Shown here: positions 4,658 through 18,919 of the stretch, piece by piece | Position numbering within the stretch: the stretch's first letter is position 1 | Layout: each line of letters starts with the position of its first letter | Source: Candidatus Omnitrophota bacterium | GTDB taxonomy: Bacteria; Omnitrophota; Gorgyraeia; Ghiorseimicrobiales; Ghiorseimicrobiaceae | Reading direction: 5' to 3' | NCBI GenBank assembly: GCA_030681595.1 | Contig: JAUXSB010000037.1 | Span: forward strand, 133,708-197,707 | Length of the DNA: 64,000 nt | The notes under the pieces: generated by a model | What the model was told of the DNA's origin: nothing | The model's database searches: none | Seen by the model: the letters and a program-made list of their open reading frames with translations, nothing else | Program-made: the position numbers and the translations under genes

Positions 4658-4688
4658 AACCAGTAACACCTACGCGGTGTTACTGGTT
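4658..4688. repeat. REP-like palindrome AACCAGTAACACC-TACGC-GGTGTTACTGGTT
   Basis: Perfect 13-bp arms. The core GTAACACC-TACGC-GGTGTTAC is identical to the copy at 9294-9314. It lies about 7 nt upstream of the MFS start codon. Confidence 0.7.
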
Positions 4689-4693
4689 TTAAC

Positions 4694-5134
4694 TTAGGTT
4701 TTTGCTTCTTTTTCTATGACTTCTTTAAATATTTGTAAATTTTCCTTGGAATGCTTGTTAATGAAGCCTTCAACTTGCTCGTCGTTAAATTTGGCTTTTT
4801 CATCCATTTCGAAATGCTGGATCCAGGTCATCTCTATGCCGTTAAGCTTGGCTGTATAAAGCCAGATAATTTTCATATATTTAAAGGGAAATTTTGGCTC
4901 TTCCCGCTCGGAATAGGTAAAGAATTTATCTTTATGAAGCAGGCGCCAGGACTGCCAGGATTTGCCCTCATCATCAGTCAGGCGAAAAGTGATTTTATTG
5001 CCTTCTTTTTTCACTACTTCCGCCTTCTGGTATTCGCCGCCGAATAGCTCTGTCCAACGCGGTATGTCGTTTGAAATGTCAAAGACTAAATCATAAGGCG
5101 CATCAATAATTATAGAATTACACGTATGTCCCAT
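4694..5134 (-). CDS. SRPBCC-superfamily polyketide cyclase/dehydrase-like protein
   Basis: 146 aa, PF03364/PF10604-like helix-grip fold pattern. Clustered with KS/CLF/ACP. Confidence 0.5.
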   Translation of the reverse strand: MGHTCNSIIIDAPYDLVFDISNDIPRWTELFGGEYQKAEVVKKEGNKITFRLTDDEGKSWQSWRLLHKDKFFTYSEREEPKFPFKYMKIIWLYTAKLNGIEMTWIQHFEMDEKAKFNDEQVEGFINKHSKENLQIFKEVIEKEAKT

Positions 5135-5148
5135 TTATCCCTCATTTT

Positions 5149-5466
5149 TTATTGTTTGCCTGATAAACTCAAAAGTATTGCCAAATTTTCGCTAGCACTT
5201 AGTGAATGCGGCGCATTCTTGGGCATAAAAATAAATACCCCCGGCTTCATCTTAATTTTTTTGCCGTTTAAGATAAAGGTGCCTTTGCCTTTTAGGACGG
5301 TTACGGCCGCTTCGCGTGTAGATGTGTGTTCGGAAATATCGCTACCTTTAGCTAAGCACATTAGCGTGTGATTAGAAATATCGGTCTTAATTAAAACCTT
5401 ACTGAAAACCCCTTGCTTGGGAAATTCCATCATTTGTTCTAGGTTTTCAACTAGCGATTTAATCAT
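5149..5466 (-). CDS. Cupin-domain protein
   Basis: 105 aa small beta-barrel with a cupin_2-like G(x)5HxH...E...PxG..H pattern. Confidence 0.55.
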   Translation of the reverse strand: MIKSLVENLEQMMEFPKQGVFSKVLIKTDISNHTLMCLAKGSDISEHTSTREAAVTVLKGKGTFILNGKKIKMKPGVFIFMPKNAPHSLSASENLAILLSLSGKQ

Positions 5467-5472
5467 ATTTTC

Positions 5473-6267
5473 TTATTCTAAAATAGCCACTACCCTTGCC
5501 CAAGCGGCGCCGGTTTTTTTGATTTTTATGGGCAGGCAGTGGATTTTAAAACCGTAGTCGGGTAGTTTATCTAAATTTGCCAGCCGTTCTATGTGTATAA
5601 ATTCTCTTTTTCGGCCATAAAAATGCGTAGGATACAACGGTTTTTTCTGCTCTAAAAATTCCTTGAGCATAAATTTATACGGACGGTCAATGCCCATTGT
5701 ATCGACGCCGAATATTTTTATGCCTCTGTCTAACAGGTAATCTATAGCTGATATATCTATTCCGGGATAATCCGAGAAGTATTTTGGCCCCCCATATAGT
5801 TTATCCGCGCCGGTGCATAAAAGAACGATATCTAAAGGCTTAATCTGGTAGTTGATTTTTATAAGAGCTGCTTCTATATCTTCAGCGTTAATGGTTTCGT
5901 TTGGTTTTTTATGCGTCAGGTTAAGTCTTGCGCCGTTTTGCATACACCATTCCAGCGGGATTTCCTCCGCGGTTTTTGAGGCGCGGCCTTCCGAGCGTGA
6001 TCCGTAGTGATATGAATAATCAAGGTGCGTTCCGATATGCACTGGTGAATGCACGGTTTCTAGAGATAAAAATTCTTCATCCGGTAAGTCTTCTTTTTTA
6101 AGTATGCGCCTACCTAGTAGATATTTAATTCTACCCGTGATGGTTTTACCCATAATCACGCGGTTAAACTTCTCTACACCAGCCGCGTGGTTTACGCGTT
6201 CAATCTTAACCTTATGCACTTCGAATGCCGTATCATCAATCGGTAAACTCAAGTCAATTATCTGCAT
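5473..6267 (-). CDS. Cyclase-family protein (PF04199; kynurenine-formamidase-like fold)
   Basis: HIGTHLDYSYHYG matches the HxGTHxDxPxH signature of the putative cyclase family. Confidence 0.6.
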   Translation of the reverse strand: MQIIDLSLPIDDTAFEVHKVKIERVNHAAGVEKFNRVIMGKTITGRIKYLLGRRILKKEDLPDEEFLSLETVHSPVHIGTHLDYSYHYGSRSEGRASKTAEEIPLEWCMQNGARLNLTHKKPNETINAEDIEAALIKINYQIKPLDIVLLCTGADKLYGGPKYFSDYPGIDISAIDYLLDRGIKIFGVDTMGIDRPYKFMLKEFLEQKKPLYPTHFYGRKREFIHIERLANLDKLPDYGFKIHCLPIKIKKTGAAWARVVAILE

Positions 6268-6279
6268 TTTAGTTTTTAA

Positions 6280-6306
6280 CCATGTGCACTACCGCAGTGC
6301 ACATGG
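6280..6306. repeat. REP-like palindrome CCATGTGCACT-ACCGC-AGTGCACATGG
   Basis: Perfect 11-bp arms. Intergenic between the ACP and cyclase genes, about 12 nt upstream of the cyclase ATG. Confidence 0.65.
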
Positions 6307-6308
6307 GG

Positions 6309-6557
6309 TTATTTAAGTTTTGAATTAGTGAGTTTTGAATTAATGGTATTTGTGATTTGCTCTATAGTGTTGAATTTAGTTACTTCTTTGGCGCTTAGCT
6401 TTGTGCCAAATTCTTTTTCTAGGGCAATTACTGTTTCTACCATTTCGGTTGAATCAACGCCAATGCTATCTTGAAGCGAGATACCATCTTTTAATTCTTC
6501 AGGTTTAATTTTTAATAGTGTAACCAACACATTTTTTATTCTATTTTTTGTTTCCAT
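6309..6557 (-). CDS. Acyl carrier protein
   Basis: 82 aa. DSIGVDSTEMVE motif with the phosphopantetheine-attachment Ser. Confidence 0.75.
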   Translation of the reverse strand: METKNRIKNVLVTLLKIKPEELKDGISLQDSIGVDSTEMVETVIALEKEFGTKLSAKEVTKFNTIEQITNTINSKLTNSKLK

Positions 6558-6572
6558 TTTTTCTCCCTAAAC

Positions 6573-8033
6573 TTAAATATGTACTTCGCCTTTGGTAGCA
6601 CCTGCTTCCCAGCGGTCTACCCCTGCCATTACGTCCTTAAAGCAGAGCTTAGCTAATTGATCAAAGTCGCTTTCTAAGATACGGTGGATTCTTCCGGGCT
6701 TGGAGAAAAATTCGCGCATACACCAAGAGCCGAGTTCGCCTAATTGTTGGGTTGATAGGTGATCTGTAGGCATAACCGGGTGCAGGAAATCCCATTGCAA
6801 AAAGTTAATTGTTTTCGGGTTAATCCAGCTTTTCTTAAGGCCCATCCTCCACATCGGTGAATTTGGCGATGGTGTGACATAGCCAATCCACAAGATATCC
6901 GGGTCTACTTCGTCGGTAAATTCATATCTTTGCTTGATAATTGCTTCGTTGTCATAGTCAAATCCCATCATGATGTCGGCAACGACAGCTATATTCTGCC
7001 GGCGTAATATGTCTATGGTTTTCTTGATGTGGTCAATGGTAATGCCTTTAGCGATTTTCTTTAACTCTTCAGGGGTAGTGACTTCGATTCCGAATACGCC
7101 GATAAAAAGCCCTGTTTCTTTCATTAGGGGTAATATTGATTCACAGTTTACCCAGTCAATGGCGCGGCCTAAAGAAACCCACTTTATCGGGTTATTGGCG
7201 GCTTTTTTTAGCTCGCAGAACTTCTTTACTCTTTCCGGGTTGGTGTTAAAGTTATCGTCTTGCAAGACTACTACTTTTACCCCGTATTTTTTATGCAGGA
7301 GGTTTAATTCTTCAACTACTCTTTCCGGTGATTTTGCGCGCCATTTCAGGAAGTCACTAGGGCTGCGTGGATCATATTGGTCCCATTCATAACAGAATGT
7401 GCAGGCTGAAGGACATCCACGGGAAGTAACCATATCCACAAACGGTTTCCAGTAGGTATGGCCTACATATTTATCCATTGGGAACAAATCGTATGCCGGA
7501 AGCGGAAGCTTATCTAAGTCCATATTCAGCGGGCTATATGGCCCCATTACAGGTTTGCCGTCAACGCGGCTGGTGACACCAGCGACTTTCGCGATATCTT
7601 TTTTCTTATCTATTGCTTCAATTAAATCAGCGAATGATTCCTCTTCGCCCATTACGACGTAATCAACTGCCGGGTTTGCCTCAAGGGTTTCCGTAGGCAT
7701 TGCTGAATACCAAAGCCCGCCGAAAATAATCTTGGTTTTAGGCAGAACTTCTTTTATGCGTTTAGCTGCTTCGTTAAAATGCGCGACCACAGCGTATCCG
7801 CCGTAAGAATGTAATTGCTCGCCTAACACCACGATATCGGGATTTTTCTCTTTTACCTTGGCGGTCATTTCATCGGCTGGGATTTCAAGGGCCTTACAGT
7901 CTAAGACCTCAACATTGTCATAGCCCTTTTCCCTGACATACGCCGCCCAATGCGCGTATAGCTGGTTTGGTGCCACATGTTTTCCGTGCGTTGCCCAAGC
8001 GCCTACTTTAGGCATTACGAATAAAATTTTCAT
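6573..8033 (-). CDS. B12-binding domain-containing radical SAM protein
   Basis: VTSRGCPSACTFCYE (CxxxCxxC) radical-SAM core preceded by an N-terminal cobalamin-binding-like Rossmann domain. 486 aa. Confidence 0.75.
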   Translation of the reverse strand: MKILFVMPKVGAWATHGKHVAPNQLYAHWAAYVREKGYDNVEVLDCKALEIPADEMTAKVKEKNPDIVVLGEQLHSYGGYAVVAHFNEAAKRIKEVLPKTKIIFGGLWYSAMPTETLEANPAVDYVVMGEEESFADLIEAIDKKKDIAKVAGVTSRVDGKPVMGPYSPLNMDLDKLPLPAYDLFPMDKYVGHTYWKPFVDMVTSRGCPSACTFCYEWDQYDPRSPSDFLKWRAKSPERVVEELNLLHKKYGVKVVVLQDDNFNTNPERVKKFCELKKAANNPIKWVSLGRAIDWVNCESILPLMKETGLFIGVFGIEVTTPEELKKIAKGITIDHIKKTIDILRRQNIAVVADIMMGFDYDNEAIIKQRYEFTDEVDPDILWIGYVTPSPNSPMWRMGLKKSWINPKTINFLQWDFLHPVMPTDHLSTQQLGELGSWCMREFFSKPGRIHRILESDFDQLAKLCFKDVMAGVDRWEAGATKGEVHI

Positions 8034-8050
8034 TGTAACCCCTTTCTTTT

Positions 8051-9280
8051 TTAAGGTTTTTCTATAACCATCGCCGCGTTAATTCCGCCGCGGCCGCGGG
8101 AAATTATCAGTGCTTTGCTTATTTTATGCTCTCGCGCTTCTTTTGCCACGTAATTTAAGCCATTCGGATTTGGATTGTCTAGGTTTATTGTTGGAGGCAG
8201 TAGGCTGTGTTCCATAGCCAAAAGCGTAATGATTAAATCTAATGCTCCAGATGCGCCGAGTAAATTTCCAAACATTGATTTAGGGCAGCTTACCGGAATG
8301 TCTTTCGCTTTATTCCCGAATACTTCCTTAATTGCTTTTACTTCGCTATTATCCCATAAATCTAGCGCAAGGCCGTCTAAGCTGATATAGCCTATATCTT
8401 CCGGGTTAACCTTTGCGTCGGAGAGCGCTGATTTTATCGCGCGGGCTAGTTCTTTACCGTTAGTATCAGGCTGGATGCGGTCATATCCATCGCAGTTTGA
8501 GGCGTATCCGGAAATAACCGCGGATATATTGGCATTACGTTTCTTTGCGCGTATAATCCCTTCCATTACCATAATACCTGCGCCTTCGCCGATAACAAAG
8601 CCGGATTTATTTTTATCAAACGGGCGGTAAGCGGTTTCTGGATGTTCGTTATCCGTTGTAAGCCCGCCGTAGGTATTACAACATAAAAGCGCATAGGGTG
8701 TTACTGGTGCTTCCATCCCACCGGCTAAAATCATATTCAGTTTATTTTTACTCAAGGTTTTACGCGCATAGCCGATTGCTTCAAGAGAACTGGCGCGGTC
8801 GGCAACCACGGTTTTTGAAAATCCCTTTATGCCGTAATAAATAGAAACTTGGCCTTGGGGGGCTGCCGGAAACCATGCTGAAGCCATATAGGGAGAAACC
8901 CCTTCCCTGCCTTCCAGATATAAATCCCGAAGTTCTGTTTCGGCATAGAGCCAGCCGCCGATAGCATTGCCTAAAAATATCCCAATTAAATTAGGGTCTT
9001 CGTTTTTAATATTGATGCCTGCGTCTTGCAAAGCAAGTTCCGAGGCGATTAATGCCATATGGGAAAAGGCGTCTATTTTTTTAAGCAAGCGTTCAGAGAT
9101 ATGGGAATATTTTTCCAGCTCATCAATTTGGCCGGCAATATGCGAGGGGTATTTCGAAGCGTCAAAGCGGGTGATTTTTTTAACAAAGGATCTGCCCGCC
9201 TTAATATTTGCCCAGAATTGTCGTTTGCCTATTCCGCTGGGGGCGACCACGCCTATACCTGTAATTGCAATCTTTTCCAT
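8051..9280 (-). CDS. Beta-ketoacyl synthase family protein, chain-length-factor-like (catalytic Cys and first His absent)
   Basis: KS fold throughout. The active-site position reads VADRASS instead of TACSS (Cys to Arg). The HGTGT motif is replaced by SLDGLA. Confidence 0.7.
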   Translation of the reverse strand: MEKIAITGIGVVAPSGIGKRQFWANIKAGRSFVKKITRFDASKYPSHIAGQIDELEKYSHISERLLKKIDAFSHMALIASELALQDAGINIKNEDPNLIGIFLGNAIGGWLYAETELRDLYLEGREGVSPYMASAWFPAAPQGQVSIYYGIKGFSKTVVADRASSLEAIGYARKTLSKNKLNMILAGGMEAPVTPYALLCCNTYGGLTTDNEHPETAYRPFDKNKSGFVIGEGAGIMVMEGIIRAKKRNANISAVISGYASNCDGYDRIQPDTNGKELARAIKSALSDAKVNPEDIGYISLDGLALDLWDNSEVKAIKEVFGNKAKDIPVSCPKSMFGNLLGASGALDLIITLLAMEHSLLPPTINLDNPNPNGLNYVAKEAREHKISKALIISRGRGGINAAMVIEKP

Positions 9281-9293
9281 GATTTTTAAACCC

Positions 9294-9314
9294 GTAACAC
9301 CTACGCGGTGTTAC
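9294..9314. repeat. REP-like palindrome GTAACACC-TACGC-GGTGTTAC
   Basis: Same core as at 4658-4688. About 13 nt upstream of the KS-beta start, between the two KS genes. Confidence 0.65.
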
Positions 9315-9320
9315 TAATGG

Positions 9321-10592
9321 TTATGCTTTAAATCGTTTCATAATTAATGATGAGTGTATTCCTGAAAAACCACTGCTTGTTTTTAGCATGGTATTTACTT
9401 TTTTTTCGCGCGCGACATTAGGAATATAATCCAAGTCGCATAAAGGGTCTTTTTCTTCCTGATTTATTGTCGGCGGTAAAATATTATTTTGAAAAATCAT
9501 ACAACCAATAGTAAGCTCTATCGCGTTTGCCGCGGCCAAGGGGTGTCCGATCATTGACTTAAGCGAGCTGATCGGCAGTTTATAGGCATAATCGCCGAAA
9601 ACTATTTTATAGGCGCTGGTTTCAAAGATATCGTTCATGCGTGTGGATGAGCCGTGGGCGTTAATATAGTCAATATCAGTTGGTTTAGTCACAGCGTCTT
9701 TAAGCGCAAGAGTAATGCAACTTGCCATAGCGGTTCCATCAGCCGGCAGGTCAGTCATGTGAAAGGCATTGCAACTGGTGCCAAAGCCGATGACCTCGGC
9801 ATAGATATGGGCGTTACGCAAAAGTGCATGTTGTAATTCTTCCAGGATTAATATTCCCGCGCCTTCGGAAAGCACAAAACCGTCGCGCTTTTTATCAAAC
9901 GGGCGTGATGCCGCTTCAGGATTGTTATTGTGTACAGATAAGACATTTACTACGTCAAAGGCGCCGAAGGTTATCGGCGTAAGCGGGGCTTCAGCCGCAC
10001 CGCAAATCATGATATCATGTTCGCCGTCTTGGATAGTTTCTAAACCAAAGCCCAGCGAGTCGGTTCCGGCAGTGCATCCGGTAGAAATTGTATTACAGAC
10101 TCCTTTTAAGCCATACTTAGCCGAGATTTCGATGGATGGCGTATTAAACATTGCCGCGTCATAAAGATCAGGCCTAACTTTCGACGGGTCAATTTCGTGT
10201 TTTCCATTTTCGGTGACTAAAGCGAATTCTTCTTCCATATATTTTGTTCCGCAGATAGCATTGGCAAGGCAGACGCCGATACGCTCGGTATTTTCTTTTG
10301 AGAAGATAAGCCCAGAGTCATTTACCGCCATATAAGCCGCCGCTACTCCAAATTGGACATATCTATCCATGCGCATTGCTTCATCGTGGGTTAGGCCGAG
10401 CTTAAAAGGATTAAAATCCCGGACCTCCGCGGCAATTTTCGTGTTAAATACTGATACATCAAATCCGTCAACTAATCTTACGCCGGATTTACCGGAAATA
10501 AAAGCTTGATAAGCTTCTTCTTTGCCGATACCGTTAGGTGAAATTACGCCAATGCCTGTTATAGCTACTCTTCTTTTTTTCATGATATCCAT
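9321..10592 (-). CDS. Beta-ketoacyl-ACP synthase (KS-alpha-like, catalytically intact)
   Basis: Active-site Cys in STGCTAGTDS, plus the His motifs NAHGSST and MIGHPL. 423 aa. The likely start is the second Met (MKKRRVAITGIG). Confidence 0.8.
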   Translation of the reverse strand: MDIMKKRRVAITGIGVISPNGIGKEEAYQAFISGKSGVRLVDGFDVSVFNTKIAAEVRDFNPFKLGLTHDEAMRMDRYVQFGVAAAYMAVNDSGLIFSKENTERIGVCLANAICGTKYMEEEFALVTENGKHEIDPSKVRPDLYDAAMFNTPSIEISAKYGLKGVCNTISTGCTAGTDSLGFGLETIQDGEHDIMICGAAEAPLTPITFGAFDVVNVLSVHNNNPEAASRPFDKKRDGFVLSEGAGILILEELQHALLRNAHIYAEVIGFGTSCNAFHMTDLPADGTAMASCITLALKDAVTKPTDIDYINAHGSSTRMNDIFETSAYKIVFGDYAYKLPISSLKSMIGHPLAAANAIELTIGCMIFQNNILPPTINQEEKDPLCDLDYIPNVAREKKVNTMLKTSSGFSGIHSSLIMKRFKA

Positions 10593-10631
10593 AACTTTAC
10601 ATTTTAAGCATTGCTTAAAATGTAAAGTTAT
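10591..10631. repeat. 41-bp perfect palindrome (AACTTTACATTTTAAGCA arms), copy 2
   Basis: Identical to 116-156 except for the central base. Abuts the KS-alpha start codon. Confidence 0.7.
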
Positions 10632-11245
10632 TTGCTTGGTTCTCCTTCTTGTCCTTCGATCTGTGATACTTTAAATACGATATTCCCTCCATCCGGGCAG
10701 GTTACCGTATCAATAGAATCCGGATTAGGCATAAAGAAAAATTTTGCTCCGAAGTTAAGCGCAAAGAGCGCGGGAAACGCGGTATGAAATGCCGCGCCGC
10801 AGAACCCGGGGATACATTTAAGCCCGGTGGTTTCCCATTTGTCTCCTACCTTATATCCAAAGTGGCATTTACCGGTTGCTTTAACAACTTCGATAACCAT
10901 TTTTTTAGGTTTCGGGCCTTTATGAGTTTCATCCTTAGGTATGAATTGGACTTTATCGCTGCCCTTTTCAAAAATCTCTGCCTTAAATTCCAATTTTCCA
11001 CCGTCGGGGCAGGTTACTTTTAAAGAGCGTTGGTTATCCATAAACGGAAATTTTGCCCCAAAACTTAAGGCATAGATTATCGGAAATAAAACGTGGGCTA
11101 ATCCAAGGCAGAAAAACTCCGGCGGATGGGTAAAATCATCTAAGATTAGCTCATCGCCGATTTTATAGCCGTGATAGCAATGGCCGAAGACATTGGTTAC
11201 GGTGAGTTTTAGTCTTGGGAATGGGGAATCTATTTTTTTATCCAT
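10628..11245 (-). CDS. Tandem-duplicated TIGR04076-family protein
   Basis: Two repeats each carry a CxxGHxxGD-type motif (GHCYHGYKIGDE...CPDGG; GKCHFGYKVGDK...CPDGG) and the ALFP/ALNFGAKF segments typical of TIGR04076. Confidence 0.5.
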   Translation of the reverse strand: MDKKIDSPFPRLKLTVTNVFGHCYHGYKIGDELILDDFTHPPEFFCLGLAHVLFPIIYALSFGAKFPFMDNQRSLKVTCPDGGKLEFKAEIFEKGSDKVQFIPKDETHKGPKPKKMVIEVVKATGKCHFGYKVGDKWETTGLKCIPGFCGAAFHTAFPALFALNFGAKFFFMPNPDSIDTVTCPDGGNIVFKVSQIEGQEGEPSK

Positions 11246-12241
11246 TTAACTTTTGACAAGAGTTAATAATTCTTCTTTGCTAAAAAACTTTCCCGTTTTT
11301 TCAACCTGATGCACCATCTGGGTTAATTTTTCATTAAGCGGCGCGGAAATGCCGTTTTTTTTGGCTAAATTCACAAATTCTCCGTTGATATAGTCTATTT
11401 CAGATGCCTTGCCTCTTTTTATACTCTGTAAAATTGAGCCGTAAAGCGGCTCGCGGCTTAGATTAAACATAATATTAGAAAAAATCTTTGCTGCTTCATC
11501 GTGTGGCATATTGGCAAGCGCTACATATCGTTTAATGTCAAATTCCGGTAATGATACCGGTTTAATTCCGGCTTTAGCTGTGATATCAAAGGCCTCTTTA
11601 AGCAGTTGAATACTTATTGCGGCCATCTCTACTTCTTTAAATGTCTCTTGCATACTGAAGCCTACGACTGCAGGGATACAATTATTTAAGTTTATGAAGA
11701 GCTTTGTCCATTTCATCCCTTTTATTTGTTCGGAAATAGTAGTTTTAAAGGCGCGGTTTAAAACTTGCTCAACTTCTTTCAGTTTTTCGTCGATTTTTCC
11801 GTTTGATCTACCAATAATCCAGCCGCCCTCAAAGTTATGCGTGATATGGCCGTAATCTAAGTGGGTAGCACCGAACATTACGATACTGGAAATAATATCC
11901 GCGCCTTTAATAGATTGCGCGACAATTTCATCAGCACGTATCCCGTTTTGGGTAGTAAGGATAATGCTATTTTTTAAAAATTCCTCGTTTTGGGCTACTA
12001 CCTCATTTATGTCTTGAGTTTTGACTGCTAAAATTGCTAAGTCAGCAGGTGTATTCAACTTGGTGTCGGCGTCTATCTTAACGTTAATTTTTCCGCGTAC
12101 CCCATCTATCGCAAGCCCGCTTTTCTTGATAGCTTCAGCTTGTTCTTTTTTGGCAATCAGTGCGACATCACAGCCTTTATCTTTTAGATAAGCCGCAACT
12201 ACCCCCCCAATTGCTCCTGCGCCAATAACAATGATTCTCAT
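11246..12241 (-). CDS. 2-dehydropantoate 2-reductase family (ApbA/PanE-like) oxidoreductase
   Basis: N-terminal IVIGAGAIGG Rossmann and a KPR-like C-terminal domain. 331 aa. Confidence 0.65.
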   Translation of the reverse strand: MRIIVIGAGAIGGVVAAYLKDKGCDVALIAKKEQAEAIKKSGLAIDGVRGKINVKIDADTKLNTPADLAILAVKTQDINEVVAQNEEFLKNSIILTTQNGIRADEIVAQSIKGADIISSIVMFGATHLDYGHITHNFEGGWIIGRSNGKIDEKLKEVEQVLNRAFKTTISEQIKGMKWTKLFINLNNCIPAVVGFSMQETFKEVEMAAISIQLLKEAFDITAKAGIKPVSLPEFDIKRYVALANMPHDEAAKIFSNIMFNLSREPLYGSILQSIKRGKASEIDYINGEFVNLAKKNGISAPLNEKLTQMVHQVEKTGKFFSKEELLTLVKS

Positions 12242-12283
12242 ATAGTTATAAGTTATGAGTGATAAGTTATAAGTTCGCTGCTT

Positions 12284-12562
12284 TTATTTCGGATAACCGT
12301 ATTTTTTATAATCAAATCCGCTTTTTTCTAACAATCGCACCATCATACTATAAAACGGCGACGGCACGTCAGAGAAAAAGGCGAAGATTACGTCTTGCTC
12401 TTCAACTTGGCCGGCATTACGCCTAAAGGCATTTTCCTCTGCCCTTTTAGTGACGACGCTTTCGGTAATCCGACGGTGAAAAACCGGAATCTTTTCAATC
12501 ATTGCCTTAAATTTTTGCTGAATCTCGCTATCCCAGTTCATTTTATCTTTTACGCAAACCAC
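12284..12562 (-). CDS. Small PCP_red-like (PF08369) domain protein
   Basis: W..E....KIPVFHRR...V..AEENA pattern resembles the protochlorophyllide-reductase C-terminal domain. 92 aa. Weak call. Confidence 0.3.
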   Translation of the reverse strand: MVCVKDKMNWDSEIQQKFKAMIEKIPVFHRRITESVVTKRAEENAFRRNAGQVEEQDVIFAFFSDVPSPFYSMMVRLLEKSGFDYKKYGYPK

Positions 12563-14043
12563 GACGTAACCAAAGACCTGCCTGTGGGGTTTAGGTCAAT
12601 GTTTACGTGCTTGGTTTGGGTGTATTCTAGGAGTCCTTCTTTGCCGAGTTCGCGGCCAAAACCACTTTCCTTGTATCCGCCAAAGGGCGCTTCGTTATAA
12701 AAGCCGCCGTAGGTATTTATCCAGACGGTTCCGCAGCGAAGTTGCGCTGCCACCTGATTTGCCCGGTTTAAATCTTTGGTCCAGACCATAGCTGCTAAGC
12801 CAAATTTTGTGTCATTGGCGATCTTAATTGCCTGATCTTGTCCGGAAAACTTAATGATAGATAATACCGGCCCAAAAATCTCTTCCTGCGCAATCCGCGC
12901 GTTATTATCCACATCTATAAATATCGTCGGCTCCAAATAAAACCCTTTTTCTAACCGTTTCCCACCTCCGAGGTGGGCAAGGGGGATGATGCCGCCAGAG
13001 ATGAGTTTGGCTTCTTTTTTACCGATTTCGATATAATCTAAAACGGTTTGGCGATGTTCTCTTGAGATAAGCGGGCCAAAGTCGGTATCATAAGATATGG
13101 CATTTCCGATTTTAAGTTTTTTGGTTTTGGCAACCAATAATTCTATAAATTTATCGTAAATTTTATCTTCTAAAATTAGGCGCGATCCGGCTGTGCACAT
13201 CTGTCCTTGATTCATGAATATTGCCGACATTGCCCCGCCCACTGCCGCCTCTATATCACAGTCGGCAAATACAATATTCGGGCTTTTGCCGCCTAATTCA
13301 AGAGAGAGTTTTTTGGTGCTGCCCGAAGCCATTTTCATTATTTCTTTTCCCGCAGTATTTCCTCCGGTAAAAGAAATCATATCTACGAGTTTGCTTTCGG
13401 TTAAGGTCGCGCCTACTTCCTTGCCTGTGCCGGTAATAATATTTACTACACCATTGGGTAAGCCCGCCTCTTGTATTATTTTGGCTAATTCTAAGCAGCT
13501 TAAGGATGCAAGTTGTGAAGGCTTAAAAACAACCGTATTCCCTAAAATAATTGCCGGTGCTATTTTCCAAGCGGCCATTAAAAATGGGTAATTCCATGGG
13601 ATAATCTGGCCGATGACGCCTACTGGCTCTTTGAGGGTAAAGCTTAATGCCGGATTATGAATCGGAATTGTTTCGCCTTTTATTTCGGTTGCGGCCGCGG
13701 CAAAGTATTCAAATGCAGATGCGGCAGTAGGTATATCAATAAAAGTAGTCTGTTTTATGGTTTTTCCGGTATCAAGTGATTCTAATTTAGCCAATTCGTC
13801 AGCCTTTTCTCTTATGAGTTGCGCGATTTTTTGAAGGTAAGGTGCTCGTTCAATAAGCGGCATTTTAGGCCAGTCGCCGGAGTCAAAAGCGAGCCTTGCC
13901 GCTTTAATTGCGGTTTCTGTATCGCGAGCGTCTGCCGCGGGAAATTCCGCTAGAATTTCGCCGGTTGAGGGATTAATGCTTGCAATGGCCTTGCCTGCGT
14001 TAACCCAAGTGTTGTCTATGTACATGTTATATTGTTTAAGCAT
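12550..14043 (-). CDS. NAD(P)+-dependent aldehyde dehydrogenase
   Basis: ALDH family. Catalytic Cys in GQMCTAGSR and Glu in ELGGKSP. 497 aa. Confidence 0.85.
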   Translation of the reverse strand: MLKQYNMYIDNTWVNAGKAIASINPSTGEILAEFPAADARDTETAIKAARLAFDSGDWPKMPLIERAPYLQKIAQLIREKADELAKLESLDTGKTIKQTTFIDIPTAASAFEYFAAAATEIKGETIPIHNPALSFTLKEPVGVIGQIIPWNYPFLMAAWKIAPAIILGNTVVFKPSQLASLSCLELAKIIQEAGLPNGVVNIITGTGKEVGATLTESKLVDMISFTGGNTAGKEIMKMASGSTKKLSLELGGKSPNIVFADCDIEAAVGGAMSAIFMNQGQMCTAGSRLILEDKIYDKFIELLVAKTKKLKIGNAISYDTDFGPLISREHRQTVLDYIEIGKKEAKLISGGIIPLAHLGGGKRLEKGFYLEPTIFIDVDNNARIAQEEIFGPVLSIIKFSGQDQAIKIANDTKFGLAAMVWTKDLNRANQVAAQLRCGTVWINTYGGFYNEAPFGGYKESGFGRELGKEGLLEYTQTKHVNIDLNPTGRSLVTSWFA

Positions 14044-14054: not shown

Positions 14055-14095
14055 ATAACTTTACATTTTAAGCAATGCTTAAAATGTAAAGTTAT
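14055..14095. repeat. 41-bp perfect palindrome, copy 3
   Basis: Identical to 116-156. It fills the intergenic space, followed by GGAG (RBS) and the ALDH ATG. Confidence 0.7.
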
Positions 14096-15120
14096 TTAAC
14101 GGGAGCTAGCTTCCATAAATCGAAAATACGGTTAAAAGGAGCATACCAGCGCGAGAGTTTTGCCATATCGCCTTTTAATTTAAGCTTACGTTGGGTTGCC
14201 GCGGCAAAAGGATCAAGTCTTCTGTCAAAAACCATGCGCCAGACTGCCGCAGGCCCTGAAATTACGAACTCCGCGTCTTCGTCATTGGTTACGGTATCAA
14301 TCTTACCTTTATTAAAATGAAAATTATAGATTCTGTTTTCTTCGTCAACCTTGATAGCAAGTTTTGTGGTTAAATTAAGCGCCTCCCCCTTTTCCTTTAC
14401 TTCCTTATCCTCATTAACCAAAGAAACTATCTTTTTGATATGCTCTTGCGAAAACAAATCGTATTTTTCACCAATGTCCACCCCCGCCGGATTGAGCGCG
14501 CCCGAACAGCGTTCGGTCAGGCGGGAGTCGGGTTGGCCCGCGGTGGAATTTACTGTTGATGCCATTAAGGCGATGTTTACTTTACAGGCTTCTTCTAATG
14601 CTTCTGCCCAAGAGAATGCTTCTTTAAAATTTGAGCCTACTGAAATTATGCCATGTTTTTTTAAGACAACGATGTTGCTTAGGCTTAGCGCTTCTAAAAC
14701 CGGCAAAACATTTGTTACAACCGGGCCATCCTGTTCAATCACCGGTATATTCGATAGATAAAGGCGCGCTTCATAGCTGAATATATCCAATGTGTTAAAT
14801 TTAGCGTAAAAGGCAGTGGTGAAATTAGGATGGGCATGAATAACCGCGCCAACTTGTTCATTTTTATACGCGCCTAAATGCATAGCGATTTCTGAAGTCG
14901 GCTTATGTGTTGTTTCTTCAAGCGGCACACCGTTTTTATCTACCGGGATAATTTCATCTTTTTCTAAATACCCTAAATAGGCATTATGCGCGGTGACTAA
15001 AAATTTATCCTTATCTATGCGTAAAGAAATATTTCCGCAAGGCCCGTTGATAAAGGAACGATTATGCAGTTCTTTTGCCCAGAAAATTATTTCTTCTTTT
15101 TGTTCTAAAAAATATTTCAT
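14092..15120 (-). CDS. Class-II aldolase/adducin-domain protein fused to a C-terminal SCP2-like domain; candidate 5-deoxyribulose/methylthioribulose-1-P aldolase of a DHAP shunt
   Basis: N-terminal aldolase_II motifs (AVIHAHPNFTTAF). C-terminal SCP2-like region (FVISGPAAVWRMVFD...LKLKGDMAKL). The inter-domain linker carries an in-frame GC-rich repeat insert at 14496-14537. Confidence 0.6.
   Translation of the reverse strand: MKYFLEQKEEIIFWAKELHNRSFINGPCGNISLRIDKDKFLVTAHNAYLGYLEKDEIIPVDKNGVPLEETTHKPTSEIAMHLGAYKNEQVGAVIHAHPNFTTAFYAKFNTLDIFSYEARLYLSNIPVIEQDGPVVTNVLPVLEALSLSNIVVLKKHGIISVGSNFKEAFSWAEALEEACKVNIALMASTVNSTAGQPDSRLTERCSGALNPAGVDIGEKYDLFSQEHIKKIVSLVNEDKEVKEKGEALNLTTKLAIKVDEENRIYNFHFNKGKIDTVTNDEDAEFVISGPAAVWRMVFDRRLDPFAAATQRKLKLKGDMAKLSRWYAPFNRIFDLWKLAPVK
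14496..14537. repeat. GC-rich ~42-bp element (GCGCGCCCGAACAGCGTTCGGTCAGGCGGGAGTCGGGTTGGC) inside a CDS
   Basis: Near-identical copy at 45394-45435 in intergenic DNA, 38 of 42 bases matching. Contains the hairpin CCGAAC..GTTCGG. Strongly GC-rich against AT-rich flanks. Confidence 0.6.
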
Positions 15121-15542
15121 TGTAAGTTTTCGTTTTGCGGCGCAATAGTTCTTATTTTTTTAACAGTAACCTTTTTACCTAAAAATGTCTTCGCGTCTTT
15201 ATCCAAAAATTTGGTGTTTGCGTTTTCGCCTTTTAAGATTTCTACGGGGATCTTATGCCAGTCTGCGAGAATTTTTACGGTATGCGCGCCGCAGGGAAAT
15301 TTATTATCAGAGCCGAATAAATATACTTGTTTAATGCGCCCTGTAAAAAACATATGGCCTAAGGCGTTGTCCGATATGAGCGTAGAGTTGATTCCCGCTT
15401 TCTTAAGTTTGTTTATCAGTATTTTTGGCCCGATTAATTGAGGCCGCATTTCAGAGATAAGGATATTTTCTTTTTTATGTTCTCGGCAAAAATTGTCGCA
15501 AGGTATGCCGTATATTAACGAGTATGTATTTATTTTACCCAT
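15117..15542 (-). CDS. Small eIF-2B/MtnA-family fragment-like protein
   Basis: GKINTYSL and GINSTLISDNALG...FGSD segments resemble motifs of the eIF2B/MtnA fold but are short and permuted. Could be a degenerate paralog. Confidence 0.3.
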   Translation of the reverse strand: MGKINTYSLIYGIPCDNFCREHKKENILISEMRPQLIGPKILINKLKKAGINSTLISDNALGHMFFTGRIKQVYLFGSDNKFPCGAHTVKILADWHKIPVEILKGENANTKFLDKDAKTFLGKKVTVKKIRTIAPQNENLQ

Positions 15543-16537
15543 TTTTTTGCAAATTCCCCGGGGGTGTATATCTGGTCGAAAAAAATAAGGCCCGTGATCA
15601 GGCTTGACGGTACAACATCAAAAGAAGGGTATATCGCTTCCTGGCTTTTTGGGGCAAGACAGCTCTTTTCAAAAACAAGCATTTCTTCTTTTGGACGGTA
15701 TTCAATTTTGATATCTTTTATGCTTTTGGTGTCACCCGGTGGCTGCACAAAACAGTAAAACGGAACACCATAATGTTTTGCCAATATAGCCAGTTGGTAT
15801 GTGCCTAATTTATTTACGATGTCGCCTTTAAGCGTAACGCGGTCAGAGCCGACAAGCACCATATCTATCCGGCATCTTTTTAGAATATCCCCTGCTTGTA
15901 TATCACAGATAAGATATGTGTTGGCATTAGCGCGGTTGAGCTCCCAAGCTGTAAGGCGTGCCCCTTGAAAATATGGGCGGGTTTCTGTGGCAAAGAACTC
16001 AACGGATTTACCTAATTTTTCCGCTTCAGCAAACATTGTAACCAATTCGCCGGAAACGTTGCAATGCGTAAGGATTCTTGCGGATTGCGGCAGTATCCCC
16101 GCGGCCAGCCTGGCACGATGACGGCGGGCATTTTGTATGGAATCGATATAAGTAAGGATTATTATCTTAATCAGGGAAATAAAACTTCCCTCTTCTTTAT
16201 TATTTTTCAGCATGCTGAGGAGTTCATTGTTTAGCTGGCTAAAAGCAAAAGTCGGCCTTGTCTGTATAAATTTTTCTGTGATGGAGCGCGATAATTTGCT
16301 AAAACTTTTGAGGTTTGTTATTTCGTTTTTTTTTGCTTCTAATATCAACGTGTAATAGAACAAAAGCACTTGTCCGAACGCGCGCGTTTTCATTTGCCTA
16401 AGCACGTAAAGCGCACCGTTTAACCCGCTTACTTTAATGTATTCTTGCTTAAACGGAAGCAAGGTTTCGTCTAAAACGGCAATGTGGCCGCCTTTAAATA
16501 TGACTGGGTTAAAAAGAGGTGATTCCGGAATGTTCAT
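15530..16537 (-). CDS. eIF-2B alpha/beta/delta family sugar-1-phosphate isomerase (MtnA-like; methylthioribose- or 5-deoxyribose-1-P isomerase)
   Basis: ETRPYFQGARLTAWEL and VGSDRV..GDIVNKLGTYQLAILAKHYGVPFY motifs typical of MtnA. 335 aa. Confidence 0.7.
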   Translation of the reverse strand: MNIPESPLFNPVIFKGGHIAVLDETLLPFKQEYIKVSGLNGALYVLRQMKTRAFGQVLLFYYTLILEAKKNEITNLKSFSKLSRSITEKFIQTRPTFAFSQLNNELLSMLKNNKEEGSFISLIKIIILTYIDSIQNARRHRARLAAGILPQSARILTHCNVSGELVTMFAEAEKLGKSVEFFATETRPYFQGARLTAWELNRANANTYLICDIQAGDILKRCRIDMVLVGSDRVTLKGDIVNKLGTYQLAILAKHYGVPFYCFVQPPGDTKSIKDIKIEYRPKEEMLVFEKSCLAPKSQEAIYPSFDVVPSSLITGLIFFDQIYTPGEFAKKWVK

Positions 16538-17283
16538 TTATTTTCTAATAATTTAATTGCCTCAAGCGATACTTTTATGATGTTTTGTTCAGCTTCGTAA
16601 TAATTCATATTGGTAAAACCCATCTCTCCAGTGATAACATTATCGGATACCGCGGTAATGGCAGCGCCTTTGCAATTAGATAGCTGAGCAATGGTTAAGA
16701 AGCTGGATGAGACCATGTCTACCGCAATCGCACCCAATGAAGCATATTTTTCTACAATTTCGCGTGTTTCACGAAGCAGCGCGTCTGTTGTCCAAATGGG
16801 CCCTTTATGGTAGCGAAGCCCTAATTTTTCCGCAGCAGATGCTAAAGCATTAGTTAGTTTCGGGTCAGCAACGGTTTTAAAATCGTCTTTAACGTAATAC
16901 GGCGTTACCCCTTCTCCCCTTATTACACTTGTTACAATTATTAGGTCGCCGACCTGTATATCTTCTTTGAGCGCACCACTCGAGCCGCACCTGATTAAAT
17001 TTTCTACACCGCCGTTACATAAGATTTCTGCGCTTATGGCGCTGTCTGCGGAGTACCTTCCGCCATTTCCTGTTGTGACTTTAGTCCCGTTGAAATCTCC
17101 CGAATAAAAAGTATATTCCATAAACGAAAAATTACGCACAGGGTTTTTTATATGTTTTAAGACTGCGTCGCGCCTGTCTGCCGGGCCGGGGACTATTGCA
17201 TATTTTCCGAAATCTCCCGGTTTAATTTGAAGCATATATAACAGTTCTTTCGCGGTTAGGTGGATATCCTTTTTCATTCTCAC
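16534..17283 (-). CDS. PNP/UDP-1 family nucleoside phosphorylase (MTA/5'-dAdo phosphorylase candidate)
   Basis: PNP_UDP_1 fold with a phosphate-binding N-terminal region (VPGPADRRD). 249 aa. Confidence 0.6.
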   Translation of the reverse strand: MRMKKDIHLTAKELLYMLQIKPGDFGKYAIVPGPADRRDAVLKHIKNPVRNFSFMEYTFYSGDFNGTKVTTGNGGRYSADSAISAEILCNGGVENLIRCGSSGALKEDIQVGDLIIVTSVIRGEGVTPYYVKDDFKTVADPKLTNALASAAEKLGLRYHKGPIWTTDALLRETREIVEKYASLGAIAVDMVSSSFLTIAQLSNCKGAAITAVSDNVITGEMGFTNMNYYEAEQNIIKVSLEAIKLLENK

Positions 17284-18794
17284 TTGGAACTCCTTTTTAG
17301 TAATTCCTTATCTATTTTTCCTGTTCGATTTTTAGGAAGCGAATCAATAAATTCAATAGCATGCGGCACCTTAAAATGCGCAAGGTGTTGTTCACAAAAA
17401 ACACGGAGATCTTTTTCGGTTAACGCGCTTTGGTTGCTTTTGACTACAAACGCTTTGACTATCTCTCCGCGGAGTTTATCCGGCATGCCTATTACCGCTG
17501 TCTCGATTATATCTTGATGTTTCTGGATTACGGATTCAACTTCAGGCGCATAAACAAGCTGGCCCGCCGCTTTAATCATTTCTTTTTTTCTCCCGGCAAT
17601 GTAGAGAAAACCGTCTTCATCAAATCTGCCTAAGTCTCCGGTGTGGAACCATCCGTTTTTTAACACGCGGTTTGTTTCTTCCGTGTTTTTGTAATAACCT
17701 TTCATTACTACCCAGCTTTTTATGGCGATTTCACCTATTTCTCCGGGCGCCACAGGTTCGCTAAATTCATCAATGACCGCAATTTGAACCCATGGGGCAG
17801 GTTTTCCTACGCTGGCAATATTTTTGCTGCCTAACGGGATAACGGTATTTGGCGGGCAGGTCTCGGTAAGCCCCCAGCCATTTAATAGATGCGTATTTGG
17901 GCAGTGTTGGTTAAAGCGCGCCAATACTTCAGGCGCGCTTGGCGCGCCAAACACCACCATCCAGCGTAAGCTTGATAAGTCATGTTTCTCAAATTCCTTT
18001 AACTGTAAAATAGCGTAATACATTGATGGTACGATATGAAAACAACTAACCCTGTACTTTTCGATAAGTTTTAAGAATTCAAGCGGAGAAAATCTCTCCA
18101 TCAGGATAAGCGTTATGCCGAAAATAAGAGAATTTTGCAAATATATAAGCCCGCCGCTATGCGAAAGCGGAAGGCAGCAAAGCTTAATGTCCGTGTCTGT
18201 TAAGTCCACAAAATATCTCATTGCTTCGGGAGAGCCATCTAAGTGCCTGTAGTTTAATAGCACCCCTTTGGGTAAACCGCTTGTGCCGGAAGTATACATT
18301 ATTAACGCGTCATCGTCCGGCGATATTTCATTTTCGGTAATTTTTGTTTTTGCTTCGTTTAAGATCTTATCAAAGTCTATACTTGTTTTTATTTCTTCGC
18401 TTGATTCTCCTTTAATGATAACTTTTTGCAAGGGCTCTGCCTCATTTTTTATTTTTGCCAGAGAAATGCCGTGCCGCGGCTGGGCGATTAAGGCTTTGGC
18501 TTCTGAATGCCTAAGGTATAGGATTATTTCCTCTTCCTTGAGCATAAAATCAAGAGGAATAACGACTGCCCCTAAAGAGAATAAGGCAAGATAGCTATAG
18601 ATATATTCCGGCGAGTTTGCCAGGTATATTGCCACCTTATCCTGCTTTTTTATTCCGACTATACTTAAGGCACAGGCGAGTTTAAAGACAATATCTTTTA
18701 GCTGGCTAAAGGATATTGTCTTATCGTTGAAGATTAAAGCAGGTTTGTCCGGGTATTTTTGCGCGTTTTTAATGAGAAAAGATTTTGTATCCAT
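17280..18794 (-). CDS. AMP-dependent acyl-CoA synthetase/ligase
   Basis: AMP-binding motif MYTSGTSGLPKGV and a C-terminal ANL domain. 504 aa. Confidence 0.8.
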   Translation of the reverse strand: MDTKSFLIKNAQKYPDKPALIFNDKTISFSQLKDIVFKLACALSIVGIKKQDKVAIYLANSPEYIYSYLALFSLGAVVIPLDFMLKEEEIILYLRHSEAKALIAQPRHGISLAKIKNEAEPLQKVIIKGESSEEIKTSIDFDKILNEAKTKITENEISPDDDALIMYTSGTSGLPKGVLLNYRHLDGSPEAMRYFVDLTDTDIKLCCLPLSHSGGLIYLQNSLIFGITLILMERFSPLEFLKLIEKYRVSCFHIVPSMYYAILQLKEFEKHDLSSLRWMVVFGAPSAPEVLARFNQHCPNTHLLNGWGLTETCPPNTVIPLGSKNIASVGKPAPWVQIAVIDEFSEPVAPGEIGEIAIKSWVVMKGYYKNTEETNRVLKNGWFHTGDLGRFDEDGFLYIAGRKKEMIKAAGQLVYAPEVESVIQKHQDIIETAVIGMPDKLRGEIVKAFVVKSNQSALTEKDLRVFCEQHLAHFKVPHAIEFIDSLPKNRTGKIDKELLKRSSK

Positions 18795-18840
18795 AGTAAA
18801 ATTTGACTATCAAATTAATAGTAAAATTTTACTATTAATT
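18795..18840. promoter_or_regulatory. Palindromic operator-like site AATAGTAAAATTTTACTATT with an upstream TAGTAAAATTT half-site
   Basis: 20-bp perfect palindrome at 18817-18836, immediately 5' of the acyl-CoA ligase start. A PadR regulator is encoded about 0.7 kb upstream. Confidence 0.35.
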
Positions 18841-18919
18841 ATGACAAATGTCAATAAAATTTAAGTTGAAGTTTAATATGTATAATTAGCTATCGAGTTA
18901 GTATAAAGTATGCGATATT

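Follow-up and report, generated by a model that had tools for sequence, protein, structure and literature searches.

A putative extended dihydroxyacetone phosphate shunt with an aldolase-SCP2 fusion, linked to a B12-binding radical-SAM enzyme in Omnitrophota

The 64,000-nucleotide stretch of Candidatus Omnitrophota DNA analyzed here (contig JAUXSB010000037.1 of assembly GCA_030681595.1, positions 133,708 to 197,707 of the forward strand; hereafter the window) carries an operon in which the genes for a nucleoside phosphorylase, a sugar-phosphate isomerase and a class II aldolase share a cluster with the gene for a B12-binding radical S-adenosylmethionine (radical-SAM) enzyme. The reading we favor, to which we would assign a probability of roughly 0.45, is that these genes form an extended dihydroxyacetone phosphate (DHAP) shunt module that serves the radical-SAM enzyme of a conserved polyketide or lipid cluster resembling type II polyketide synthase (PKS) systems, by removing 5'-deoxyadenosine. 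The enzyme families, the intact catalytic residues, the operon and the conserved linkage are observed, and from them we infer the substrate, the direction of flux and the roles of an acyl-AMP ligase and of an SCP2 domain fused to the aldolase. The architecture, with its SCP2-fused aldolase, pseudo-isomerase subunit, aldehyde dehydrogenase extension and linkage to a B12-radical-SAM enzyme in a PKS-like cluster, appears to be new, and the chemistry is of a known kind; a literature search covering the fusion, MtnA in B12-radical-SAM clusters and Velamenicoccus polyketides found no description of such a system.

Phosphorylase, isomerase and aldolase together make up an established route for 5'-deoxyadenosine and 5'-methylthioadenosine (MTA), of which a phosphorylase-initiated variant has been described, and radical-SAM enzymes release 5'-deoxyadenosine, which inhibits them (PMC6079011). 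In the scheme proposed here, the phosphorylase would act on a 5'-deoxy-nucleoside, most probably 5'-deoxyadenosine from the radical-SAM reaction, to give adenine and 5-deoxyribose-1-phosphate; an MtnA-type isomerase, probably paired with a catalytically dead small paralog, would convert the sugar phosphate to a 1-phospho-ketose; and the metal-dependent class II aldolase would cleave this to DHAP and an aldehyde, which would be acetaldehyde if the substrate is 5'-deoxyadenosine. The adjacent aldehyde dehydrogenase (ALDH) is predicted to oxidize the aldehyde released by the aldolase to an acid (acetate from acetaldehyde), and the acyl-AMP ligase, where present, may convert the acid to a thioester that re-enters the pathway. 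Because an ALDH has been added to the trio, the unit follows the logic of the fluoroacetate route, in which phosphorylase, isomerase and aldolase are followed by an aldehyde dehydrogenase (PMC3999930), rather than that of the bare shunt.

A first-pass annotation, made from the letters of the window, had placed a PNP-family phosphorylase, an MtnA-like isomerase and a class II aldolase side by side, and this has held up: all of the open reading frames (ORFs) are where it put them, on the minus strand (Table 1), the Pfam assignments agree, and the Pfam E-values of the three main enzymes, 1e-33 to 1e-45, exclude chance. Start and stop codons overlap, as ATGA both between phosphorylase and isomerase and between a small 141-aa ORF and the aldolase, and by 13 nt between isomerase and small ORF, which argues for one operon of translationally coupled genes. 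The radical-SAM gene lies 6 kb downstream of the shunt genes in the same operon direction. The proposal that the trio constitutes the three-step shunt is right as far as the enzyme types go, which match the known route, but the unit is larger, as it has the ALDH downstream and the acyl-AMP ligase upstream.

The linkage recurs widely. In a genome scan with one genome per species, at least 264 genomes, the majority from Omnitrophota, encode a relative of the aldolase-SCP2 fusion, and the 80 loci that were kept match it over approximately its full length, so that the fusion is indeed conserved in homologs, a point the first-pass annotation had left for checking. ORFs were called in 85 related loci and matched to the window proteins, and the percentages that follow come from the 58 loci with enough flanking sequence, which are not phylogenetically independent. 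The isomerase is near the fusion in 98% of them, the ALDH in 93% (54/58, in each case as the immediate downstream neighbor, with a median gap of 47 nt), the B12-radical-SAM gene within 10 kb in 88% (51/58), the small ORF in 83% (48/58), the phosphorylase in 69% (40 loci; it is absent from 18) and the acyl-AMP ligase in 62%; genes for ketosynthase (KS), chain-length factor (CLF), acyl carrier protein (ACP) and cyclase are found in 52-60%, a range limited by the 10-kb flank. The core unit is radical-SAM enzyme, isomerase (with its small subunit in many loci), aldolase-SCP2 and ALDH, with phosphorylase and ligase as frequent accessories, the ligase being present in 36 of the 40 loci with a phosphorylase and in 0 of the 18 without. 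That the radical-SAM gene is linked in 88% of well-flanked loci from many species indicates a functional rather than an accidental association, and synteny in the related loci rules out chance adjacency. The linkage claimed earlier therefore stands; the dedicated by-product salvage that was read from it is plausible and leaves the SCP2 domain unexplained.

Three layouts can be distinguished. In layout A, that of the window, the order is ligase-phosphorylase-isomerase-small ORF-aldolase/SCP2-ALDH-(radical-SAM), followed farther on by KS-KS-ACP-cyclase. A second layout begins with KS-KS-ACP-cyclases, a major facilitator superfamily (MFS) transporter, a short-chain dehydrogenase/reductase (SDR), the radical-SAM gene and Amidohydro_2, then has a phosphorylase, a class IV aminotransferase or nothing, and ends with isomerase-(small ORF)-aldolase/SCP2-ALDH. 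A 'minimal' layout consists of ligase, radical-SAM gene and module, then an MMPL/sterol-sensing transporter, a LolA-like/DUF1329 protein and DUF1302, with no KS within 10 kb, and the retention of radical-SAM gene and module in loci that lack PKS genes over this distance speaks for salvage. In several loci (L023, L032, L043 and L052) the radical-SAM gene even lies between the shunt genes. In 12 of the 58 loci the place of the phosphorylase is taken by a class IV (BCAT/ADC-lyase-like) aminotransferase (e.g., at 7833-8642 of L001); the ligase is also missing there, and 6 further loci have neither phosphorylase nor aminotransferase. The absence of the phosphorylase from 31% of loci fits the salvage reading, since a locus could do without the gene if the substrate were a small, common nucleoside also handled by a housekeeping enzyme.

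The record titles of the 80 kept loci name Omnitrophota (46), Planctomycetia/Planctomycetales (23), Desulfobacterota-type bacteria (6) and one Methanosarcinales bin, with 4 unclassified. The Methanosarcinales metagenome-assembled genome (L018) and the 23 Planctomycetia/Planctomycetales-labeled loci share their gene order with Omnitrophota loci, and L047 mirrors L044, from Ca. Velamenicoccus archaeovorus. The labels of these loci may stem from mis-binning or a coarse classification and not from a true spread of the cluster, and one might speculate that the Methanosarcinales bin acquired the cluster through co-binning with an Omnitrophota epibiont.

The aldolase domain keeps its catalytic equipment. 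H95, H97 and H156 (the metal-binding His triad, on which the original assignment hinged), E77 (the catalytic Glu) and G29, N30 and S32 (the GN.S phosphate motif) do not vary among 21 fusion proteins whose identity goes down to 37%, and they align with the motifs of DrdA and FucA; the AlphaFold2 pLDDT exceeds 90 across most of the domain. Against the PDB, the family profile finds Streptococcus FucA (8.9e-26) and DrdA, the 5-deoxyribulose-1-phosphate aldolase (9.3e-26), then an epimerase (~1e-12) and human MtnB (2.5e-7). The best NCBIfam score, 92.7 with a cut-off of 203, is below equivalog level, and in NCBI an entry 100% identical to the window protein goes by no more specific name than 'class II aldolase/adducin family protein'. 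On profile comparison the domain appears closer to true aldolases than to those branches of the fold that act as dehydratases, epimerases or decarboxylases. A non-aldolase reaction, in which the enzyme would carry out MtnB-like dehydration, decarboxylation or epimerization of a polyketide or sugar intermediate, is very unlikely. In its favor, all of these chemistries occur within the class II aldolase fold, the best match of a single-sequence PDB search is the MtnB-like Aquifex aq_1979 protein, and Phe predominates in the fusion family at the site that aligns, by eye, with Tyr113 of FucA, with an invariant Glu117 after it. Against it, human MtnB and the epimerase trail FucA and DrdA by many orders of magnitude in the family profile search, the ALDH that is the immediate neighbor in 93% of loci fits an aldehyde product, and no enolase-phosphatase or dioxygenase partner was found. 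An MtnB dehydratase identity in particular is disfavored by the profile comparison together with the neighboring ALDH.

Where the aldolase departs from FucA is on the aldehyde side of the active site. The residues concerned in FucA are Tyr113' and, in its C-terminal tail, Phe206/Tyr209, and the tail reportedly forms the aldehyde-side wall of the active site. In the fusion family the position of Tyr113 is, on alignment by eye, mostly Phe, and from about FucA residue 185 onward homology is lost, a linker and the SCP2 domain standing in place of the tail. That the aldolase carries such a C-terminal domain was already apparent on first inspection, and it is confirmed here as part of one 342-aa protein: modeled alone, the domain has a pLDDT of 93.8 and a TM score of 0.75-0.79 to Thermus thermophilus SCP2, with the SCP2 domain of UbiJ and the C-domains of alkylsulfatases as the next relatives. 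The full-length model (pLDDT 87.2, pTM 0.78) shows a disordered linker, residues 192-215, between the two domains, and a Foldseek search of this model in the PDB returned matches to single-domain aldolases only, with no two-domain analog. Sixteen residues of the SCP2 domain are invariant, including S224, H227, N236, D303 and Q310. Searched alone against 1.84 billion representatives, the domain has only 87 matches, many of them proteins of ~330 aa aligned at the SCP2 position of the fusion and the rest mostly shorter pieces, which suggests an SCP2 subtype with its own sequence subfamily that is almost confined to the aldolase fusion. By analogy with UbiJ, whose SCP2 domain acts in ubiquinone synthesis, we propose that it would dock the aldolase to a hydrophobic partner or intermediate. 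A 694-aa metagenomic protein (P0065) combines Radical_SAM_N2, B12-binding and Radical_SAM domains with Aldolase_II and SCP2, the domains being truncated on either side of the junction; it is probably an assembly or gene-call artefact and was not used as evidence, although it would be a striking radical-SAM-aldolase fusion if real.

The fusion is also what brings a quite different explanation into view. In a two-carbon homologation, the B12-radical-SAM enzyme would couple a 5'-deoxyadenosyl group to a carbon atom in a lipid or polyketide intermediate, phosphorylase, isomerase and aldolase would trim the adduct to DHAP and R-CH2-CHO, the ALDH would produce R-CH2-COOH, the ligase would activate this acid for the KS/CLF, and the SCP2 domain would hold the hydrophobic R group. 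We regard this as unlikely, and a shade more so in the form of a 'radical carboxymethylation', a previously unknown route in which C5' and C4' alone would stay on the substrate and the dead half-isomerase would reshape the isomerase pocket. It would nevertheless account for the replacement of the FucA tail by linker and SCP2, and the closest structural relatives of the domain include those of UbiJ and the alkylsulfatases, which hold lipid chains.

The isomerase is closest to the MtnA type. Its best PDB match is Thermotoga maritima MtnA (1.1e-42), Cys159 is invariant in 76 of 76 orthologs, and the Asp of the G.D motif is conserved, while a 7-residue shortening after the Cys loop runs throughout the family. 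In NCBIfam it scores 208.8 bits with PRK05720 and 197.6 with TIGR00512 (cut-off 279), both below cut-off, and 108.6 with ribose-1,5-bisphosphate isomerase; an identity as the latter enzyme, and with it an AMP route, was rejected on the difference between 208.8 and 108.6 bits.

The 141-aa ORF that follows it had been described as an eIF2B-like fragment, a description that needs to be revised, as this is a conserved gene homologous to residues 170-310 of the isomerase. A hidden Markov model (HMM) made from syntenic copies of the ORF detects it in 48 of the 58 loci, and comparison with the isomerase family by hhalign aligns its residues 17-141 with 170-310 at a probability of 99.3% (E 2.6e-20). 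A 6-residue gap falls exactly at the catalytic Asp motif, nothing matches the region of the catalytic Cys, and the conserved residues are limited to G12, E31-x-R33-P34, G38 and D58. Conservation in 48 loci, translational coupling and motifs of its own rule out a pseudogene fragment. The ORF, annotated by NCBI as 'hypothetical protein', is fast-evolving (its copies have a median identity of 29% to that of the window), which is why a word-index protein search found only 2 relatives. It is best read, from its alignment, as a non-catalytic paralog of the C-terminal domain of the isomerase, and since IF-2B-family proteins pair through the domain to which it corresponds, it is probably a partner subunit of the isomerase.

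The best PDB matches of the phosphorylase are the uridine phosphorylase of Streptococcus pyogenes (2.9e-30) and then the MTA phosphorylase of Sulfolobus (4.5e-24), and it scores 24 bits with the MtnP model TIGR01694, whose cut-off is 275; on these matches it is classed with the hexameric DeoD/Udp/SsMTAP-type enzymes and not as an MtnP ortholog. The Arg, Gly and Ser phosphate motifs are kept, as is a purine-type '(V)SDN' motif that is common to Sulfolobus MTA phosphorylase, and the canonical ribose-binding motif 'VEME' has become 'VDMV', invariant in 54 orthologs. Translation probably begins at the ATG at 17277 and not at the GTG at 17283, because its Met is kept in at least 90% of orthologs and AGGAG lies 13 nt upstream. 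In hexameric relatives an N-terminal His contacts the 5'-OH, and this His is retained.

The retained His opens the way to ordinary nucleoside or AMP salvage, in which ribose-1-phosphate made from a nucleoside (or ribose-1,5-bisphosphate made from AMP) would be turned into a ketose phosphate and then into DHAP and glycolaldehyde or phosphoglycolaldehyde, the aldehyde going on to the acid, in a manner resembling the archaeal pentose-bisphosphate routes and recycling the AMP released by the ligase. Besides the 5'-OH contact made by the His in relatives, the phosphorylase gives weak AMP-nucleosidase-type matches in NCBIfam, its gene co-occurs with that of the AMP-forming ligase, and a haloarchaeal ribulose-1-phosphate aldolase is among the weaker NCBIfam matches of the aldolase (57.7 bits). 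The chance of this seems to us slimmer still than that of a non-aldolase chemistry: the isomerase scores on the MtnA side, the core persists without phosphorylase and ligase, and neither the radical-SAM linkage nor the SCP2 domain would be explained. A further possibility, also with little in its favor overall, is that MTA is converted through 2-(methylthio)acetaldehyde to 2-(methylthio)acetate, which the ligase would load as an unusual starter for the KS/CLF. The enzyme logic would match the DHAP shunt in its MTA branch, an MTA phosphorylase ranks second among the PDB relatives of the phosphorylase, and ALDH and ligase are linked to the module; however, no MTA-generating gene is found in the cluster, whose tight partner is a radical-SAM enzyme, a source of 5'-deoxyadenosine, and AT4-type and phosphorylase-less loci are without ligase, with the SCP2 domain again unexplained. 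These two readings and the non-aldolase one are less likely than either salvage or homologation.

The ELGGKS and QGQMCTAGS motifs, with the catalytic Glu and Cys, are visible in the ALDH. The ligase matches best the long-chain-fatty-acid--CoA ligase family PRK06187 in NCBIfam (458.8 bits, cut-off 476). The radical-SAM enzyme has a B12-binding domain and a radical-SAM core of CxxxCxxC type (CPSACTFC in the sequence) and scores 203.7 bits as BchE-like, far below cut-off, attaining no subfamily cut-off. Its family is remarkably constrained, as the best 120 database clusters (P0124-P0243) are 74-93% identical and nearly all exactly 486 aa long, whereas the aldolase-SCP2 and isomerase proteins of related loci are only ~42% identical to the window copies; a second radical-SAM type, ~50% identical and 489-491 aa long, sits after the ALDH in many loci. 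The first KS (KSa) has the active-site sequence TGCTAG and the second (KSb, 8051-9280) has ADRASS, with an Arg at the aligned Cys position, and scores are FabF-like; KSb thus looks like a non-condensing, CLF-like partner, with Arg where the chain-length factors of actinobacteria typically have Gln. Alongside the pair are an ACP, a PF04199 cyclase and an SRPBCC protein, which makes the set type II PKS/fatty acid synthase (FAS)-like.

Table 1. Coordinates in the window of the genes and sites discussed, with the search results behind each assignment.
Feature	Position	Strand	Evidence
Promoter-like site TTGACA-17-TAAAAT	18826..18854	-	~30 nt upstream of ligase ATG
Acyl-AMP/CoA ligase, first operon gene	17280..18794	-	AMP-binding 1.5e-86 + AMP-binding_C (Pfam)
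Nucleoside phosphorylase, hexameric NP-I (DeoD/Udp/SsMTAP) type	16534..17283	-	PNP_UDP_1 3.8e-35
MtnA/DrdI-type aldose-1-phosphate to ketose-1-phosphate isomerase	15530..16537	-	IF-2B 5.8e-45
Small IF-2B-like protein, 141 aa	15117..15542	-	IF-2B 1.1e-05
Aldolase_II-SCP2 fusion, 342 aa	14092-15120	-	Aldolase_II 1.4e-33 + SCP2 2.5e-10
Class II (FucA/DrdA-type) aldolase domain, residues 1-190	14551..15120	-	Aldolase_II 1.4e-33
SCP2-fold domain, residues ~216-342	14095..14475	-	SCP2 2.5e-10
NAD(P)+ aldehyde dehydrogenase (ALDH)	12550..14043	-	Aldedh 6.2e-178
B12-binding radical-SAM enzyme	6573..8033	-	B12-binding 5.3e-13 + Radical_SAM 4.4e-22
Cluster remainder	1153..12562	-	Domain and family searches; same gene set recurs in related loci

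Several observations weigh against the removal of 5'-deoxyadenosine as the whole purpose of the module. The phosphorylase has both retained the N-terminal His and replaced the ribose-binding Glu ('VDMV'), and its substrate may therefore not be plain 5'-deoxyadenosine; none of the enzymes attains its NCBIfam equivalog cut-off, the phosphorylase not being an MtnP ortholog at all; and the ligase looks to be of medium/long-chain type rather than acetate-activating. It is hard to see what use the handling of a small polar sugar phosphate would make of the SCP2 domain, which is strictly conserved and has many invariant polar residues; salvage also leaves the dead half-isomerase unexplained, and it is unclear why salvage should be tied to one radical-SAM enzyme when cells normally have several. 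Taken with the lipid exporters found in some loci, the SCP2 domain, the half-isomerase, the altered ribose site and the ligase type fit homologation, and the fusion together with the divergence of all four enzymes leaves room for a lipid-bearing substrate.

Homologation would explain the SCP2 fusion, the ALDH, the medium/long-chain-type ligase, the divergence of all of the enzymes and the shortened loop by the isomerase Cys, and the co-occurrence of phosphorylase and ligase (36/40 versus 0/18 loci) suits it as well. The genes for the MMPL/sterol-sensing transporter, LolA-like/DUF1329 protein and DUF1302 that directly follow the module in 16-18 of 85 loci (L021, L024, L028, L032, L043, L052 and others) suggest that a lipid-like product is exported to the outer membrane; the window lacks these three genes and has an MFS transporter instead, and the cluster product is probably hydrophobic and exported. 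HpnH/HpnG and MqnE/MqnB are among the precedents for adenosyl transfer, and SinC, of sinefungin biosynthesis, is a B12-radical-SAM enzyme that transfers adenosyl to a substrate carbon (bioRxiv 10.64898/2026.05.21.726688). Yet homologation would need an unprecedented class of substrate, no corrinoid adenosyltransferase is found among the conserved cluster genes, and the radical-SAM enzyme is BchE/methylase-like and resembles no known adenosylating enzyme in particular. The 31% of loci that have no cluster phosphorylase pose a difficulty, as a housekeeping enzyme is unlikely to take a bulky adenosylated lipid. Salvage of 5'-deoxyadenosine is the more economical account, at the modest probability given above.

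Characterized examples of the DHAP shunt, or 5-deoxyribose salvage, are MtnP-MtnA-Ald2 of Rhodospirillum rubrum, MtnK-MtnA-Ald2 of E. coli ExPEC and DrdK-DrdI-DrdA of Bacillus thuringiensis, with a phosphorylase variant in Clostridium phytofermentans (PMC6079011). The module has the same three enzyme folds in one operon, the same predicted chemistry and intact catalytic residues, and the comparison with DrdA, MtnA and MtnP that had been suggested for it comes out in part as expected, the aldolase being near DrdA and the isomerase near MtnA but the phosphorylase, of the hexameric DeoD/Udp type, no MtnP ortholog. It differs from the known shunts in that all of its enzymes fall below equivalog cut-offs, in the SCP2 domain on the aldolase, the gene for a non-catalytic half-isomerase, the ALDH and, often, the acyl-AMP ligase, and, unlike a stand-alone shunt, it is embedded in a PKS-like cluster beside a B12-radical-SAM gene. 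With the fluoroacetate route it shares a four-step logic leading from a nucleoside to a carboxylic acid and DHAP, with an aldehyde dehydrogenase at the end (PMC3999930), and it differs in enzyme subfamilies and host phylum. A halogenated-nucleoside pathway was set aside, as ORF clustering revealed no fluorinase/chlorinase-like gene among the conserved cluster ORFs and the window cluster has no further ORF family of that size either, a result obtained without a dedicated HMM search.

SAM by-product salvage enzymes also occur inside the natural-product cluster for nocuolin A, where NocA is MtnB-like and NocB MtnD-like (PMC9486936), but that cluster has dehydratase and dioxygenase steps rather than aldolase and ALDH, and it has no SCP2 domain or radical-SAM partner. 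The pairing of a radical-SAM enzyme with a base-removing enzyme of the PNP_UDP_1 family is seen in HpnH/HpnG (hopanoid side chain) and MqnE/MqnB (futalosine); the phosphorylase here scores 54 and 25 bits on the HpnG and futalosine hydrolase models, far below cut-off, and unlike the present cluster those pathways and that of SinC have no isomerase or aldolase step; adenosylation by the radical-SAM enzyme is hypothetical here. UbiJ, in the ubiquinone metabolon, and the alkylsulfatase C-domains have the same SCP2 fold, which in them presents a hydrophobic chain to a soluble catalytic partner, whereas here it is fused to a sugar-phosphate aldolase and forms its own sequence subfamily. Surveys have noted type II PKS-like KS-CLF pairs and 'ladderane'-type biosynthetic gene cluster calls in Omnitrophota (PMC10132072; PMC9902471). 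The cluster resembles non-actinobacterial type II PKS/FAS-like clusters ('ladderane'-type in antiSMASH, and aryl-polyene-type with LolA-like/MMPL exporters) in having KS, Cys-less CLF-like KS, ACP, ketoreductase and cyclases, and some relatives have an MMPL/LolA-like export triad; none of the published type II PKS/FAS-like clusters found in the literature search includes the shunt module.

The remainder of the cluster begins beyond the ALDH with a 92-aa DUF2621-like protein, a ketopantoate-reductase-like protein, a tandem TIGR04076 protein, the KS, the CLF-like KS, the B12-radical-SAM enzyme and the ACP, and continues with the PF04199 cyclase, a cupin, the SRPBCC cyclase, the MFS transporter, an SDR ketoreductase, a secreted 202-aa protein and a LigW-like Amidohydro_2 decarboxylase. 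The DUF2621-like protein (12284-12562) and the 205-aa protein with two TIGR04076 repeats (10628-11245) are, like the ketopantoate-reductase-like gene, conserved between ALDH and KS in layout-A loci. Upstream of the operon are genes for a secreted rhodanese-domain protein (18920-19492) and a PadR regulator (19486-20004), which may belong to the cluster, and, farther upstream, for a weakly thymidylate-synthase-like protein (20130-20897; 41 bits), followed by an ORF of 234 aa that matches nothing in Pfam (21388-22092). CdhD-type CO dehydrogenase/acetyl-CoA synthase subunits at 30150-32003 are consistent with an anaerobic host of Wood-Ljungdahl type.

Two elements that may bear on expression were found. 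The site TTGACA-17-TAAAAT is the best consensus match (11/12) between 11000 and 20200, in a region where the total number of such sites is not above shuffle expectation; on this weak evidence it is promoter-like and correctly placed before the ligase. Between the aldolase stop codon and the ribosome-binding site of the ALDH gene lies a perfect intercistronic palindrome of 41 nt (14055..14095), ATAACTTTACATTTTAAGCA-N-TGCTTAAAATGTAAAGTTAT, whose 20+20 nt are 100% complementary and which as RNA would fold into a hairpin of a predicted -25.3 kcal/mol (z -6.8). The window has three identical copies, at 119-153, 10594-10628 and 14055-14095, and on the minus strand the latter two are immediately 5' of the ribosome-binding site and start codon of the KS and the ALDH, respectively. 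The palindrome is absent from the same intergenic site in a 76%-identical relative (L006), and it could be an intercistronic element for RNA stability or processing, or a repeat of the repetitive extragenic palindromic (REP) kind.

The disposal of 5'-deoxyadenosine has been worked out only recently and is usually treated as housekeeping, and here a diverged version of it is tied to one B12-radical-SAM enzyme. If dedicated salvage is its function, the removal of a by-product can be a built-in part of a biosynthetic pathway, and the module would provide a marker set for a large family of uncharacterized clusters; if the SCP2 domain, part of an architecture with neither a solved nor a described counterpart, points to a substrate that carries a lipid, the adenosyl group of SAM would have found a new use as a two-carbon donor. 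Either way, the module offers assayable hypotheses for a cluster that is present in hundreds of genomes and conserved across the largely uncultured phylum Omnitrophota.

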